NCBI GenBank assembly: GCA_951406725.2
Contig: OX597834.1
Span: 8,804,001 to 8,868,000 of the forward strand
Length of the DNA stretch: 64,000 nucleotides
Source of the DNA: Octopus vulgaris
Lineage: Eukaryota
Direction: 5' to 3'
Position numbers and translations under genes: made by a program. Position 1 is the first letter of the stretch. Every line of letters starts with the position of its first letter. Under the pieces are notes generated by a model, which was not told the origin of the DNA, ran no database searches, and saw nothing but the letters and a program-made list of their open reading frames with translations. Shown piece by piece: positions 4,537 through 57,368 of the stretch.

Positions 4537-5056
4537 TAAACTGCTTTGATTCATGCATGTAATTCCCAATAAACTGGATGAAGGGCTCTCTTTAATCTGT
4601 ACACTTGCACATATATATATTTATTGATACGATCAGGCAAATTCTTATATATAAAAGAGCCGAACGTCTGAACACAAAAACATAAATTGCACAATCAGTA
4701 AATTAATAGTCAAAGATGAAATTATGTAACACAAGTTATAATACCAAAAGAATTTCATGTCCAGTCCTCCTCGATTGTTCAAAGATAGGTGGTGAACGAT
4801 CCGATCCGTATGCAGCTCTCTCTCGTAATTCGTGATATTCGCTGCATTCTGAACTCACCTCAGTTCGATTTTGCTTTCCTATTTTTAACAGGAAGTAAAT
4901 GTATATATATATATATATACATATACACATACATATATATATATAGATATATATATATATTTGTACATTTTTATCTACATATATGTATATATATATATAT
5001 ATACATACACATATATAGATATATATATTTGTACATTTTCATCTACATATATGTAT

Positions 5057-5101
<45 letters not shown>

Positions 5102-5214
5102 TTGTATGAGTGAGGTTACGAATAAACAAACAATACAGATGTGCACAAGAAAGGTATTAGCATGACGCTCAGTGAAAATACTTTGTCATTAGGGGTGTGG
5201 CTCTTCTATAAACA

Positions 5215-5815
<601 letters not shown>

Positions 5816-12880: not shown

Positions 12881-14565
12881 ACAGATATTTATGGAGTAGC
12901 AGAGAATATGCGAAACTTTATATGGAATAGCATGAAATACTGGAGAATGGAGTTGACAGCAGGAAAGCACGGACTAGTAGAGGTGGAAATCAAGAGAAGA
13001 ATTTTCCAGAAGGACTGTGTGTCCCCATTCATATTCGTGCTGGGAATAACGCCGTTGAGTGAAATACTACAGAAGACATAGTTGGGGTATGATCTAGGAA
13101 AAGATAAGGGAAAACTAAACTACTTGCTATTCATAGACGACCTGCAACTGTTCACAAAAACTGAGGCAGAACTGGACAGCCAGGTCCAGCCTGCGGATTT
13201 TCTTCAGTTATATCAAGATGGAGTTTGGACTCCCAAAATGTGCTGCGATGGCGAAGAGATGAGGATAGTTTGTCAGGACAGCAGGTATATAGTTACCAAG
13301 TGGTGAAATGATTACGAGAGTTCAGCCAGCTATGAATATCTGGGAATACTTGAGACAGATGGAATCAAACAGCATGACATGAAGGAAAAGACAAAATAAA
13401 AATACACTACCTGTGGCGATTGGGAAAAATATTGGCTTCGAAGCTGAATGCCAGAAACAAAATTTCGGCAATAACGTCAGGCCCAGTCGCAGTAATTCGG
13501 TATGGCTCTGGAATTCTCAAGTGGACAGAGGAGGAGCTAAAGGGGCTGGACAGTAAGATAGAAAGTCTTCTACGAATGCATGGAGCCCATCATCCACGTG
13601 CAGACACTGATCCCCTGTACATGAAGAGAGCAAATGTAGGAAGGGGATTGATAAATGTGGGAGACTGCGTACGTATCGAACTCTTGAGTTTAATTAGATC
13701 CCTAGCCCAAAGTAAGGAAACCTTGTTAGGGACATTTACGAACAAAGGAGCATTGTGTGCAAAGAAAAAAAGGAAAACAAAAGAATACAAAAAGTACATG
13801 AAGAAGAATTACACATGAACGGAATACACAATAAAGTTCATGTAGCCACAAGAGAAGTTGCTGGAATAAATAGTGGGGATTGGCTGATGAAAGGGACCTT
13901 AAAAAAGGTACCGAAAGCACTATACTGGTAGTGCAGGACCAGTCTCTGGTCATGAACTGGAGGGTCAACCTGAGGTATGACCAATTGTGTCCGCTGTGAC
14001 ACATCTGCAACAAAGTGGATGAAACCATTGCCCAGATGACAAACGAATACTCTAGACTTGCCCAAGTTGTGGTGACAGGACCAAGTAATGAAAGTGTTAT
14101 ATTGGAAGCTGTGCGAAAAGTGGGAGTTAGCGAGAGGCAAGACGGAATGGGAACAATCGGCAGAGAATGGCAGAGTCGGAGGCTAGGAAAATTCTCCAAC
14201 GTTAAACCTGACCAGCAGAACGTCATAAAGGAATGGTAGCAAAAAAGACTGACTGTTACCTAGCTCAGATACCAGGAAACCCCAGAATGGCAGAATTTCA
14301 AAATTTAGTGCTCATCGGAACTGTCCATATTCTACGTAAAATACTGTCTGTGTTAACTCAAATTTTAAAATAAACTTCTTATGTTTACTTACTTATGTTT
14401 ACTTACATCTTATGTTTACTTAAACATTCTCTAGAACAATACGATGTACAAAACCAAATATATGACACTCTAGTCATAACATCAAATTGAACTTGCTGTC
14501 TCTTGAGGTCTCTGGGTGAAACTTGGAGTCAACTTGTAGAATTTCAAAGCAACAGTCAAACATAT
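12881..14565 (+). pseudogene. Decayed R4/Dong-clade non-LTR retrotransposon (RT C-terminal half, CCHC region, C-terminus, 3' UTR)
   Basis: Translated remnants: IKRRIFQKDCVSP (GIFQGDSLSP-like), LNYLLFIDDLQLF, VIRYGSGILKWT, HHPRADTDPLYMKRANVGRGL, KGTESTILVVQDQSL, KVLYWKLCEKW and QNLVLIGTVHILRKILS. Stops and frameshifts present; flanked by (AAT)n on both sides. Confidence 0.85.
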
Positions 14566-21511: not shown

Positions 21512-22326
21512 TAGGAGTTCGTATCACAACGTCCTCGGACTAGATCTGTAGCGCCTCACTAGATAGCGGCATGCAGTTGCGTGCATTGTGAGAGCAAGCA
21601 GTGAATTTATGAGGCGGTGTTCTGAGTCACAACGCTCCCGGTTTACTTACATCGCATGTTCTGAAGTCTGTGAACTAAGAGGCAATGTGAAATTTTGCGT
21701 TAAAAGTGGCAAGTCTGCTACAAACACATTGAGAATACTTCGACAAGCTTATTACGACGAGGCAATGGGTTGTATGCAAAGCTTCGAGTGGCACGAGCGT
21801 TTCAAACATTGAGCGATAGGGAATGTAGTATCGTACATTGTGGATTTGTCCCTCTGGGCCAAACCGTCAATCGAAAGATCTACTGTAATGTATGGAACCG
21901 TTTGAGGGTGGACAGTCAGCGAAAGCAACCGGATATGTGGAGCGCGAATTATTGGAATCTTAACGAGGGCATTGCACTATTTTCACGTGCTAACATCACT
22001 CGTGAGTTTCTTGCCCTAAAACAACACAATGTCGCTTCGCGCCCGCCCTACTCTCCAGATTTCGCCATTGCGGACTTCCATCTCTTTCCCAAGATAAAAA
22101 TGCAGCTCAAACTTCACCGTTTTAATACCAGAGCGAATGGCAGAAGGTCCTCGACTAGCTTACGCAAGTCTACTTCCCGCCCGGATTCCAAAAGTGGCAT
22201 GAACGTTGGGACCAGTGTTTTGTTACTCTAGGTGACTATTTCGAAGGCTTTGATGCTAAATTTTAGGTAAATAACTTATCTTTTATGAAACACAACTAGT
22301 CTAGTAACCGTTTGATGCCACGTCGT
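21512..22326 (+). mobile_element. Internally deleted mariner element
   Basis: N-terminal HTH (NVKFCVKSGKSATNTLRILRQAYYDEAM..FEWHERFK) joined to a catalytic-domain remnant (VHCGFVPLGQTVN..PPYSPDFAIADFHLFPKIK). Degenerate TIRs at both ends. Confidence 0.88.
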
Positions 22327-25244: not shown

Positions 25245-25510
25245 GTAACTATGTACCATGTTTGTATGTATGGATGTGCATCTTTATGTGTGGATCCGTG
25301 TCTCCCTATGTGTCTGTTCTTGTAACCTATGTACCTATCCGTCTGTATGTTGATCTGGTTATTTACATATCTAAATGCTTACATACAGAAATAAAATCTT
25401 TGAGATTTTTTAAACTCCTAAGTTTTGCCATGGGCTCTTAGGAGCCTCGTTCGATTTGTTTTACTCCGCCTCTGTTCTGTTTTTGTTTATTCCAACGGAT
25501 TTCCTATTTC

Positions 25511-25590
25511 TTCCTGAAGAGAAAGACACAATATGGTCTCATTATTCAATCGGAATTTGGTAAATTGTGCCTTTCGAAACACGTGTAGAA
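25511..25590 (+). ncRNA. Type I hammerhead ribozyme motif, intact core, palindromic stem III
   Basis: ttc CTGAAGA gaaagacacaat...attgtgcctttc GAAA cacgtg TA gaa. Confidence 0.8.
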
Positions 25591-25640
25591 TGCAATAAAA
25601 CGATTTCTGTTCAATCTTCGTTCAACTCCATTTCTTCAAT

Positions 25641-25694
<54 letters not shown>

Positions 25695-25697
<3 letters not shown>

Positions 25698-25862
25698 CTT
25701 CACAACAGGAGGTGCAGATGAGGGCAGCTGCATCAACCTCTCTCATGCACCAAATGTCAATTGCTAAAAAGCATTCGTGAAGTAAAATCATGTAGCAACA
25801 CCGAATGGCGGTGCCCCAGCATGGCCACAGCTCGTGAGCTGAAACTAGATAAAATAATAAAA
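25695..25862 (+). mobile_element. 3' end of a retroelement sharing its terminus with SINE A
   Basis: 'ggcggtgccccagcatggccacagctcgtgagctgaaactagataaaat' compared with SINE A 'ggcggtgctccagcatggccacagtcaaatgactgaaacaagtaaaag'. Upstream sequence is unrelated to SINE A. Confidence 0.6.
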
Positions 25863-26399
25863 TGATATATAGTTAGCTAGTTTTGTCTTTTGCCTGGAGT
25901 TCACAGATTTTAGTCTGTGAAGAGATTAAATACCCTGTTTTGTATATTATACAATCACATCGTTCCCTTTTGTGGGTAATTTACTACATCTAAGTCCTGT
26001 GTAAATGACGAAAGATGATTAAGATTTCTTGAATTTCCTTGTCTGACATTCATGAAGTAAAATATGAATAAGAACCATGCATGAATGACGCTAAGAGAAA
26101 TTGTTTCTTCAAGTCTTTAAGATGTGATATATTTTCAACATAGCTTTCGCATATGTTGTACTTTAACTGAAGATCAACTCTGAGCGGGAAAACGAGTAAT
26201 TAAATGTATTTCAGCTGCACGATATTCCGAGGAAGTGTTTTAAATCATCAGAATTTAATTAGACACATGTTTTAGATAAGGAATATTTCGTTACACTTTC
26301 TATCTAATTAAAGCTTTCCGAGTGTTCGTCACCATATATTTTACGTACGCGATTTCTTTCTTTCTTTTTCTCCTTCCTTTTCTCTCTCTCTCTCTCTCA

Positions 26400-26680
26400 T
26401 ACGACATCACGGGATCCAGTTTTACGGAACAGCCTGCTCGTTATATTAAACTGCATGTGGCTGAGCACTCCACAGGCACTCGTAATTTTAAAGTAGTTCC
26501 CATGGAGATTCCGCATGGCATAGAATGTCACAATTACAAGAACAGACCATTTTTGTTAGCTGAGGGGGCAATGTGAAATAAAGTATCTTGCTCAAAGATA
26601 CAACGCCGTCGCCGGAAATCGAACTCAGGGGCTTACAATTCGGGTGCCCATTATCCGAATCACGAAGCCATGCACCATCA
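26400..26680 (-). mobile_element. SINE family C, diverged copy
   Basis: 'ggctgagcactccacag...gtgaaataaagtatcttgctcaaagatacaacgccg...ggaaatcgaactca' matches 9030-9358. Confidence 0.75.
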
Positions 26681-26885
26681 CTCACACACACAAACGCACA
26701 GACATAATCACACACACAAACACATAAACACACAAACACATTATACATACACACACATATATATACACACATGTGTGTGTGCGTGCGTGCGTGTGTGTGT
26801 GCATACGCATATATAGGTCTTTGCACATAAAATGCATAAATCAATATCGTTATAAATATCTTACAACTATAACTATATTTAGATA

Positions 26886-26944
<59 letters not shown>

Positions 26945-27268
26945 ATACACACACACACATGTCGAATAAGAAACCTGGCAAGAAGATCAAATGTCTTTTT
27001 TTTTAGATACTATACATCATGCTACTTAGCATTTTTCCTAATAGGCACCTGCTTAAAATTATACGGTAGTGATATATACGAGAGGAATTCAAAAAGTCGG
27101 AGCTTTCAAATGTGTCGTGTAACACTTTGATCAGTGGTCAGTAGGACTCAGTAGATGCAAAAAACTATAAAGTATACAATTTCTTCCAAAGCAAAAAAAG
27201 TCTCCCTGAAAACATGATGAAAATGGAATGGGAGGTCATTTGTCAGCTCATTTACACCCCACGACAAG

Positions 27269-27640
27269 ATGAGTGCAAGAAGGAAGAGTTATTCCATGAA
27301 GTACAAGAAATGAATCGTGGAGGAATTACTGAGCAGTAATCTTAATGTTTTCTGCAACGAAAAGCATTCGGATCTCTGTATGGTTCGAAAAGTGCGAGCA
27401 GACTACGATAATCTCAGTCACCCAGTGGACGAGGGAAATGCAAAGAAACGCAAGTGTGGACCAGGTCGGTGACCACTTTACTCTAAGCTACAAGACGTCA
27501 TCTGTGAATGGGTTGCTGACAAGAGAGCAAAGACTTTGGTTGTTCGCAGGACTGATATTCATGCATTTACCCTTATAAATGCAACACAGTATGGTATACT
27601 TCCAGAAGTATTCAAAGCATCACAACAGTGGCTGGAATAT
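27269..27640 (+). pseudogene. pogo/Tigger-like transposase N-terminus (DNA-binding region and CENP-B-type HTH), decayed
   Basis: MSARRKSYSMKYKK*IVEE...DLCMVRK / RADYDNLSHPVDEGNAKKRKCGPGR*PLYSKLQDVICEWVADKRAKTLVVRRTDIHAF...FKASQQWL. Confidence 0.8.
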
Positions 27641-28499
27641 TACACTGATTCCATATAATCTTCCTTTTTAATGTTTTTAATTGACATATACACAACTTTT
27701 ACTTATTTTGGTTTTGAAATCATGTTTTTAAATTCTTATATTTTCTTTTTATACAACATAACAATATTGTTTATAAACTATCATCCATAGTGCCCCTCAA
27801 TGAAATTTCCTCTGTATTAAAATGTTAGGCTTCGTACCGCCTTGCCCCTTTAACTGGTAATTAAAATCATGATTTAATGTCTACCCCTACCCTGCCTCAT
27901 TTTATAGACAATTACTTATATCCACCTGACTAATCCTAGTGTTCTATTTCCTCCTTGGGGAAAGGAGATACATATGGTATTATTTATGACCATACCTAGG
28001 CATGATCTGTCAACTCACTCTTGTCCTTTATTCAAAATAGAAACAGTATTGTAGTCTTAGATTTAGTAGTTGATAAAGAGATAAATGAATTAGAAATAAA
28101 TTATAATCCTTTACAAACCTATGACTTCACTGCGCTCCATGCGATTCTTAGAAGTAGTACTCTATTCTTAGCTACAATAGCGACAACAGGAATTTCTTCC
28201 ATCTTGCTCTGTTGAAATATTTGAGAAATATTCTATTAAAATGTCCTACTTGTTAAAATTCCATTTATTTGTGCAGATGAAGATGGCCCTGCATTGAAAT
28301 TGATGTAATGATTGCATTGTTCACTTAAATAGGGCTGCTTTGAAAGGGTCATATTGCATCACTACTTGATATCCTGTTGCATATTTCGATTTTATTCACC
28401 GAACTTCGGGACGTGCGGATAATAACGGACTGACATGGTGCTTCAACATAAGTACCTAATTCAACTGAATCTCGTATAATTTTTAACTCGTCCACCAAA

Positions 28500-28554
<55 letters not shown>

Positions 28555-28561
28555 TCCTTGT

Positions 28562-28644
28562 TTTTCCCGATGAGAAGGCGGCATAATGCACCCCTTATTC
28601 CTTCGAAATTAGGAATATGCAGCCTTCGAAACATATGTCGAGAA
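28562..28644 (+). ncRNA. Type I hammerhead motif with CCGATGA (U4C) core; paralogue of 25511
   Basis: ttttc CCGATGA gaaggcggcata...tatgcagccttc GAAA catatg TC gagaa. The downstream 'aatc[g/t]tcgttcaactccatt' is shared with the 25511 copy. Confidence 0.75.
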
Positions 28645-29373
28645 TAAAGGAATTTTGTTAAATCGTCGTTCAACTCCATTCTTTCATTTATTTGTATTAA
28701 AAAAACACACAAATTTCCACACGAAAGCACGTGATCTCTGCCCTTGGCATGTAGCTTCAACCGTGTTTTTCTGACGTAAATTTGCTACCCAGGTATCGGT
28801 TAACCGAATTATCCATTCTAAGATAATTCATTCAACTACTTATATATACATATATATATGATTGGACGATTGCTAATAAATGATCACGATAACAAGTGGA
28901 ACGTTTGCATATCATATAATGTCAACTACGATTTTTAATTGCGCAAGAACTTACAAGTTGTAGGTTAGAGATCGGCTACTTAAGCACAATTGGGACGAGA
29001 CACAACGAAATTTTTAAAATTCGTTTCTCTCTGTGGAGACATTATTCTCTACACGTCGTCTAGCAACAATTTACGCAGGCTGCACAAAAGGACAATTCAG
29101 ATCCTTAGGTGGTGAAGGCTAACGGAGTCAGCTCCCATATTTAATGGGATCAGTAGAGAACTCCAGACGAACCAAACTTACTCATCTCAGACTTAGCATA
29201 ATGTTGCAATACACTGGTCGTATGTGTAACACTTAGTTCTCAACGATAAAGATAGAACTCTCTGTTCCAAAATGTATGTATATACGTATGTATTTATGTA
29301 TGTGTAGATGAGTTAGACTTTAGAATTCATCAGAGAAGCGACACACAAAATGAAATGGTTTACTACACGTAAT

Positions 29374-53838: not shown

Positions 53839-53918
53839 CATCCTGACGAGGGGAGTGTCAATTTTAGATATATTATGTTTCATATTAATTGGCGCATCTC
53901 CGAAACGGCCCGTAGATG
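53839..53918 (+). ncRNA. Type I hammerhead ribozyme motif, intact core
   Basis: catc CTGACGA ggggagtgtcaatt...aattggcgcatctcc GAAA cggcccg TA gatg. Confidence 0.82.
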
Positions 53919-56439: not shown

Positions 56440-56935
56440 TTTACCCATTAGATTTCCCCCTAAAATATATATACCCATCTCGGTACAGAACCAATACCTC
56501 AAAAATCTTATCGAAAAACTGGATAATTTTATCCGAAGTATAATATGGAAAGCCTTCTTCTTTGATACAAAGCGGAAATCTAACGGCATCAAACATGACC
56601 TTAAATCTAAAAATACATCTCGTATTTTGAATCGGAAACCTTTGAAAAAATTCTTTTCGAGCTTATGTGAAGAATTACATTCCGAAAATTCAACAACCAA
56701 ATCCAGAGAGATGTGAAGGAAAAAATTAGAGACATAAAGAACACGGATTAGATCTTTGTAAACTTCCACAAAACAAAAGTCTTATACGTAGTTGACAAAA
56801 ATGTTTATAAACGTCTACTAAAGAACAGCATTACGGACACCTACAATAAAGATAACACAAATTTATATAAATAGGTGTGTTTGGAGATACGAAGAATTGC
56901 TAACAATCTTAAAGTTAAGAATAGGATAGAATAAC
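56440..56935 (+). pseudogene. Penelope-like element ORF N-terminal fragment, decayed
   Basis: IPISVQNQYLKNLIEKLDNFIRSIIWKAFFF, KTKVLYVVDKNVYKRLLKNSITDTYNK and RRIANNLKVKNRIE resemble, from memory, the pre-RT region of invertebrate PLE proteins (NIPIPS..LIEK..RMRWKAxFF; ADKTxNLY..YxKLLxxNITxxYKK). Confidence 0.7.
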
Positions 56936-57368
56936 TCCCTACTCACGTCACCTCAGAAGAGGGGAGGAGTTGAAGTAGGCAGAAGAAATAAGGAAAGAAA
57001 TCAGAGGGACCAAATAATGAAAGGGAGGATCACAGAATGTGAAGAAAGGAGAGAGAGAGAGAGAGAAAGAAAGAAACAAGTTAAGGAAGGAAGTCAAAAG
57101 AGAATGAGATAAGAGGGAGGGGGAAAAGGATTAAGGAATACCAGAGAGGGAGAGAGAGAGGGGGCACAGAAAACAGAAATAGATGAGGATGGACTCTCTC
57201 AACCGCTAACTGTATTTCCCATTCTCTCAATTTTGTTTCTTTTTCTTGTATTTCTTTTTCTTCTTTTCCCCGTTTTCTTCTCCTCACCCCTACTTGTTAT
57301 CCTATGACTTTTAACCTTTCTTTCTTTCGCTTGTAACAACTGAAACATCTCCGTTCACTTCATCATCC

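Follow-up and report, generated by a model that had tools for sequence, protein, structure and literature searches.

A 64,000-nt stretch of the Octopus vulgaris genome (the window: assembly GCA_951406725.2, contig OX597834.1, forward-strand positions 8,804,001 to 8,868,000) carries two hammerhead motifs that we assign to two sister families, A and B, among the Penelope-like elements (PLEs). The setting is a 2.8-Gb genome in 227 contigs, with ~35% GC and rich in microsatellites. We consider it probable that the motifs sit at truncated 3' ends of these retrotransposons, which likely arrived in separate insertions at neighbouring (TA)n repeats, and that self-cleavage would require the palindromic helix III to pair with that of a second ribozyme of the same family. 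The first-pass annotation of this DNA had described a local paralogous pair of Penelope-type hammerheads. The observation is real, with the corrections given below, and the Penelope type is confirmed, but the local-pair reading is unsupported: the copies belong to two separate dispersed families and a tblastn search detected no element sequence between them.

A descriptor scan of both strands of the window returned four candidates, three of which are good hammerheads (25514, 28567, and 53843). Copy 1 lies on the forward strand at 25511-25590 and comprises stem I (25511-25513/25588-25590), a core reading CUGAAGA at 25514-25520 and GAA at 25576-25578, stem II (25521-25532/25564-25575), the helix III palindrome ACACGTGT at 25579-25586 and a GUA triplet, with the cut predicted at 25587/25588. 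Copy 2, on the same strand at 28562-28644, has stem I at 28562-28566/28640-28644, the core at 28567-28573, stem II at 28574-28585/28616-28627, the palindrome ACATATGT at 28631-28638 and a GUC triplet, with the cut predicted at 28639/28640. The coordinates of both copies, the loopless self-complementary helix III and the two cleavage triplets all hold on re-reading the sequence. Stem II, first annotated as a 12-bp helix kept with different sequences, does differ in sequence and is retained as a helix, but each copy pairs at 11 of the 12 positions, with an A.C mismatch at position 6 in copy 1 and a G.A mismatch at position 7 in copy 2. The annotation had also overlooked the hammerhead at 53843 and a change in the core of copy 2, which reads CCGAUGA and thus bears U4C at 28568. 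Copy 1 is canonical and fits the consensus C3 U4 G5 A6 N7 G8 A9/G12 A13 A14 A15/U16 H17, whereas copy 2 fails it at position 4, where its family has U4. Genome-wide, this position is C in 5 matches and U in 777 (5/782), as expected of a mutation acquired after insertion. U4C is reported to reduce hammerhead activity in vitro (PMC3088659, accessible text), and copy 2 is likely impaired by it.

The motifs did not arise by chance, since the hammerhead pattern matched 7,253 times in the genome and twice in the reversed control; Rfam at its gathering threshold gave no match within the window. Both have three helices, end in helix I and show a fold supported by covariation, and on these grounds of sequence they are type I hammerheads for which self-cleavage is predicted.

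Comparison of the two copies revealed six positions of stem II that change on both sides and none that changes on one side only. Four of these changes convert one pair into another and two move a mismatch (hypergeometric p=0.001, or 0.012 without the three core-proximal pairs), which bears out the compensatory changes first noted. In a set of 13 natural copies, both sides have changed in 9 of the 19 pairs, amounting to 26 cells versus 9.6 in shuffles that ignore relatedness (0/500), and the 91% pairing drops to 33-51% when the strands are slid; the number of further pair types was not above the shuffles (415/500). A tree-aware test used the majority sequences of 16 subfamilies (227 copies), leaving out 27 singletons and subfamily sf39, which has an indel in helix III. 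It counted 6.5 same-branch double changes in stem II versus 2.1 for re-paired variable columns (p=0.0012), ~3.5 of the 6.5 being pair-to-pair. Helix III is self-complementary in 16/16 subfamilies, four of them using G-U, and the core columns are invariant at 11/11 positions versus 33/121 other columns, most of the subfamilies outside A and B having been retrieved with a search pattern in which the core and the first stem pairs are fixed. A second hammerhead pattern (102 matches, 6 in the control) allowed a gap too short for family A and was not used. We conclude that covariation across the 16 subfamilies is significant but loose, and that the selection is real and acted on the source elements. 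The earlier inference that covariation inside one window is direct evidence of selection on the RNA fold thus survives in part: the fold was selected, as both tests show, but the changes arose between transposon lineages and say nothing about these two copies. The subfamily alignment also displays a small ATTC...GAAT-like hairpin inside loop II, conserved in most subfamilies, that could be a tertiary contact or a protein site.

The two families are young and abundant. A first look gave 1,453 candidates for family A (copy 1) and 1,543 for family B (copy 2), and with 40 candidates scored for each, the best copies were 97-100% identical. A and B are ~70% alike around the ribozyme, and their proteins are 60% identical over 830 columns. 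Copy 1 lies within a 5'-truncated 3' end of family A, a pseudo-long terminal repeat (pseudo-LTR) fragment of the short-end type at 25421..25646 (+), with 95-100% identity to loci L031-L060 and continuous in L082, L141, and L187 with a 3' untranslated region (3'UTR) and an open reading frame (ORF) for a reverse transcriptase (RT) with a GIY-YIG domain. Copy 2 lies within a 5'-truncated 3' end of family B, of the long-end type including a ~160-nt tail, at 28549..28859 (+), with ~95-99% identity to L002-L030 and continuous with the ORF for the RT and endonuclease (EN) in L088, L144, and L148. Longer copies extend upstream into the ~600-nt 3'UTR and then the ORF. The family-A unit consists of a ribozyme, a ~260-nt leader, an ORF of 894 residues encoding an RT with YRDD and, at the C terminus, a GIY-YIG-type domain, the 3'UTR and a ribozyme. 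L187 is a whole element of this kind, from ribozyme to tail with both ribozymes complete, L186 has an intact ORF and a partial 5' ribozyme, and L183/L184 form a head-to-tail array with four ribozymes spaced 3,624-3,625 bp apart. For family B the longest open frame has 833 residues, no intact full-length copy being present among the loci fetched. With pseudo-LTRs from tandem copies, an inverted 5'-truncated arm, a tail at one end and a hammerhead in the pseudo-LTR, the families have the structure of endonuclease-bearing (EN+) PLEs. By their alignment to these elements, the window copies are truncated 3' ends of two different young, high-copy PLE families that end in (TA)n.

A Neptune-type ORF beside a family-A copy was rejected as the parent element: this intact ORF of 785 residues (L081, 3450-5804, +; DKG, CX4CX2C linker, RVT_1 match) comes right behind the family-A end, after a (TA)n run, and the ORF that belongs to family A is of a different type. 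The arrangement recurs in L083, L143, and L191 and shows several kinds of PLE accumulating at one microsatellite. In L084 (~4860-5410, +) a family-B copy carries an internal deletion, with the ORF start fused straight to the 3' pseudo-LTR; it is possibly a non-autonomous form. Contigs of four runs that we guess to be RNA span 27, 30, 30, and 29 of 30 bins of L187; they show neither strand, ends nor cleavage and are not used as evidence. One contig of a presumed-RNA run skips 1,823 bases of L187 (5637 to 7461) between GT..AG ends and lands just before the 3' ribozyme, with 27 letters on the short side, a weak hint of a splice or a deletion copy.

How the copies end bears on how they were inserted. 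(TA)n begins mostly +41 to +75 or +196 to +223 after the predicted cut site, which gives two groups of 3' ends, short as in copy 1 and long as in copy 2; insertions stop at two fixed distances, ~+50-70 and ~+200-220. Of 195 unique non-ORF arms, 190 reach (TA)n within 300 nt past the cut site, with the starts concentrated at these two ends, as in the (TA)n preference of Hydra-type elements. Copy 1 ends at a (TA)n microsatellite (25647..25692), the likely target, the 3' ends of family copies abutting (TA)n; copy 2 has (TA)n upstream (28503..28548) and at its 3' end (28860..28878), all of these bounds being approximate. The tail of copy 2, between the short and long ends, occupies 28698..28859 (+), and in full-length elements it is the 5' leader running to the ORF start. 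At the 5' junction of copy 1, an 8-bp fold-back (25415..25422), the reverse complement of element sequence just downstream, is likely a template-switch scar, and other copies also show fold-back junctions.

In the fetched loci, which as best search matches favour young copies, same-family head-to-head inverted pairs combined one long and one short arm in 56/56 cases (33 A, 23 B-type), a count that omits two cross-label pairs, one in L191, where the arms belong to different elements separated by 7 kb, and one in L227 (long plus short). An independent pass scored 50/54 pairs as long plus short by motif and 54/54 by (TA)n start; the four "long plus long" pairs are misclassified short arms, because one arm in each meets (TA)n at +61 or +62. 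In the 37 pairs that are long enough, the arms diverge by 0.9% versus a background of 2.9% for other copies, which argues that both arms come from one source, and no other copy is closer in 23/37. The tail, ~150-160 nt here, is on exactly one arm. This strict rule quantifies what earlier descriptions state no more precisely than as "often" or "optionally" present, with a length of 30-40 bp in PLEs (PMC8557442 and PMC3846280, accessible text). The 5' ends of 30 ORF-start copies, three of them units of one array, are scattered, and 19 run upstream through the cut site. Cleavage as the origin of the 5' ends of full-length copies was rejected, as 0/30 begin at the cut site, the nearest lying at +6, +9, and -11. 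Within the family-A element both 3' ends are followed by AT-rich letters that could pair with a nicked (TA)n primer.

These ends resemble those of PAc, a Poseidon element of Anolis carolinensis and the only PLE assayed in vitro, which according to the accessible part of its description nicks the two strands and extends both, initiates at two internal sites, takes unprocessed RNA as substrate and has a protein-assisted ribozyme (PMC11167929). PAc likewise has two fixed 3' ends downstream of the ribozyme that define the tail, AT-rich targets, and genomic copies that read through the cut site, and our two end groups and read-through 5' ends fit its behaviour. Unlike A and B, PAc belongs to another clade, its ORF starts inside the ribozyme and its 30-40-bp tail is coding, whereas here the ORF starts ~265 nt past the cut site and the tail, of ~160 nt, lies outside coding sequence.

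The encoded protein was assigned by structure prediction and motifs. The predicted structure of the family-A protein has a mean confidence (pLDDT) of 76.5 with residues 631-764 disordered, and the six best PDB matches in a fold search with it are telomerase RTs (E 2.5e-8 to 6.2e-8). A profile built from the family-A protein matches a Neptune-type PLE protein at a probability of 96%. This single ORF with a predicted telomerase-like RT is as expected of an EN+ PLE. The C-terminal GIY-YIG domain is recognized by alignment, in which VYQC...YVG and the R, H, E, and N positions line up with homologues. Marks of the Hydra clade are DKT, RWK in place of GxKF/Y, a CxCX5C linker finger, no CCHH, CxxC/CxH, and a length generally below 3 kb (PMC8557442). 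Counts among the best 120 of 390 homologues (DKT 120, R[WF]K 91, CxCX4-7C 116) show that these proteins carry the clade's marks. Like the clade, which includes Hydra-1_Obim of Octopus bimaculoides, a hammerhead-bearing element with (TA)n preference (PMC8557442, Files S1/S2), our families have a single ORF with RT followed by C-terminal GIY-YIG, a type I hammerhead close to the 3' terminus, ends bordered by (TA)n and an inverted 5'-truncated arm. A and B have SDKT (DKG changed to DKT), and together with a further family, D, they lack CCHH in the EN and have CxxC and CxH flanking the conserved E and N. RWL, with no GxKF, stands at the RWK position and agrees with that mark in part. Unlike the clade, the family-A unit measures 3,624 bp, and the finger is missing in 3/3 families (A, B, and D) versus present in 116/120 best homologues, its site being occupied by a disordered Asn/Ser-rich insert of ~130 residues; Asn-rich inserts between RT and EN are also described in the accessible text on rotifer Penelope elements (PMC3846280).

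A quick tree of 50 rows (45 of the 120 homologues, one very long outgroup) provisionally unites A, B, and D in a single clade (100) that sits inside finger-bearing homologues (99, 99, and 97). Three finger-less database rows seem C-terminally incomplete, and the named reference Hydra proteins were compared with A, B, and D by eye only. Another high-copy Hydra-type family of the same genome (L263 and L264; 150 near-identical best matches) keeps the CxCX5C finger, and no hammerhead was seen in the ~800 bases past its stop codon. Because one defining feature, the linker finger, fails, we file A, B, and D as a putative Hydra-derived lineage of PLEs, not as textbook members. The loss of the finger with (TA)n ends kept argues against the proposal that the finger mediates (TA)n targeting.

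For the monomer, the 2-bp helix III is predicted at +2.4 kcal/mol; the predicted duplexes reach -10.3 kcal/mol for A with A, -7.0 for B with B and only -3.0 for the mixed A/B helix. PLE hammerheads have been proposed to cleave as dimers and show low activity in vitro (PMC4209133 and the review PMC6765202, both in their accessible parts). The natural dimer partner is likely not the other window copy but a same-family ribozyme one unit (~3.6 kb) along a tandem element. A tblastn search found no PLE protein match between the copies, which disposes of a single element spanning both, and at the density of 7,253 motifs chance alone should yield ~29 neighbours of this kind in the genome, on the same strand and no more than 3.1 kb apart. 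The two copies are likely not a functional pair but independent insertions at nearby (TA)n repeats. We favour the following course, each step of which is conditional. A read-through transcript of a tandem element would carry two like ribozymes 3.6 kb apart, which would join through an 8-bp helix III and cut at a slow rate, probably assisted by protein, trimming multimer RNA to unit length. The endonuclease would nick both (TA)n strands, and reverse transcription would begin at two internal sites, producing the long-plus-short inverted arms; the templates inserted would be those uncut or re-ligated at the ribozyme. Both window copies would be passive remnants.

Several results weigh against this reading. 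For copy 1, minimum-energy folding puts the active form 5.3 kcal/mol higher than a competing structure. The absence of a 5'-end pile-up at the cut site means that cleavage leaves no genomic trace, and ribozyme mutants of the anole element left insertion unaffected in that one assayed PLE (PMC11167929, accessible text). Stem II is loose, with 167/192 cells pairing and one-sided breaks at positions 4-8 in several subfamilies, and the core invariance of the subfamilies outside A and B is partly by construction, since the search pattern fixes the core. As for the protein, Pfam gave no RT or GIY-YIG match for A, B, or D, a PDB sequence-profile search returned 0 matches and no GIY-YIG match was listed in the fold search with the family-A protein, so that the endonuclease call rests on motifs and alignment.

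The strict one-long-one-short arms, both copied from the same ribozyme region of one source on templates that were uncut, could instead reflect a fold kept for protein binding or dimerization: the palindrome would join two uncut templates, a dimeric RT-endonuclease would prime both target strands, and cleavage would be slow or secondary. A PLE protein is predicted to be dimeric and extends both strands (PMC11167929, accessible text). We nevertheless regard this as unlikely, as invariance of the catalytic core across subfamilies speaks for chemistry, Naiad elements, which lack canonical hammerheads, produce inverted, tailed insertions of the same kind (PMC8557442), and one RNA with two pseudo-LTRs, or the self-priming route set out in the accessible text of PMC3846280, could yield the same arms. 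A bolder form, to which we give a similarly small chance, lets RNA do the protein's job: helix III would dimerize two uncut templates for a one-short-one-long, two-ended insertion, and AU-rich RNA at both sites, not a zinc finger, would aim at (TA)n. If true, the hammerhead would be a dimerization signal first and a ribozyme second.

Equally doubtful to us is a circular intermediate, in which the ribozymes cut unit-length RNA that is then circularized and reverse transcription around the circle makes tandem and pseudo-LTR copies. Such a route has been proposed for PLEs (PMC4209133, accessible text) and would also account for the cut-site read-through copies and the head-to-tail arrays, but linear read-through transcripts account for the same structures, and reads of the anole element neither began nor ended at the cut site (PMC11167929, in its accessible part). 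It is very improbable that a host transcript through 25.5-28.6 kb lets the A and B ribozymes of the window pair by helix III and excise ~3 kb. In favour of it, they lie on the same strand 3.05 kb apart, near the natural 3.6-kb spacing, and the mixed helix keeps 7/8 pairs; against it, the predicted energy of this helix is poor, U4C in copy 2 occurs at neutral-mutation frequency, the number of such neighbours is what chance provides and the gap is filled by unrelated repeats.

Returning to dimer cleavage within a family, much of the picture has precedent. Palindromic-helix-III hammerheads in PLEs are already published, and with Hydra-1_Obim (PMC8557442) Hydra elements with hammerheads in octopus are already in print, so the finding itself is mostly ordinary. 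Minimal metazoan PLE hammerheads, in the accessible text of PMC4209133 and in Lunse et al. as cited in that of PMC6765202, share the type I topology, short helix I, long helix II with G10.1-C11.1, palindromic helix III and pseudo-LTR location, as well as many variable families per genome with compensatory changes (PMC4209133). They differ in a near-absent helix III, versus 4+4 nt here, and in a helix II of 7-8 bp, shorter than ours. The Hydra rows of File S2 have a stem II of 3-7 bp, versus 11-12 bp plus a distal hairpin here, and a helix III with a 1-3-nt centre, versus a fully loopless 8-nt one. Non-LTR retrozymes also bear type I hammerheads related to PLE pseudo-LTRs; unlike these short non-coding tandem repeats, each unit of which has one hammerhead, the window copies are solo truncated ends of coding elements, and the accessible text of the preprint makes no mention of octopus (bioRxiv 10.64898/2026.07.22.740005). 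A curated annotation of repeats in octopus includes Penelope-like families that were active recently, with neither ribozymes nor Hydra in the main text seen, and its supplement may include these families (PMC13282606). We found no description of finger-less Hydra-type families or of the strict long/short rule in the open literature, subscription papers and Repbase being outside the search. The role of PLE hammerheads is stated to be unclear (PMC8557442), and young families with intact ORFs and natural tandem arrays are useful material, in which the differing palindromes of sister families supply built-in matched and mismatched dimer controls.

Elsewhere in the window, the third hammerhead (53843-53914, +) belongs to an unrelated family, C, with 418 first-look candidates at 92-96% identity and a helix III of 4+4 nt around one C. 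PLE ORF matches turned up in 2/20 of its loci and did not link the family to a PLE ORF. A broken N-terminal fragment of another Hydra-type PLE ORF lies at 56471-56952 (+; tblastn E 2e-24). Further scraps resemble a pogo/Tigger-type transposase (~27200-27650, +), a Tc1/mariner-type transposase (21704-22231, +) and a non-LTR RT (13378-13818, +).

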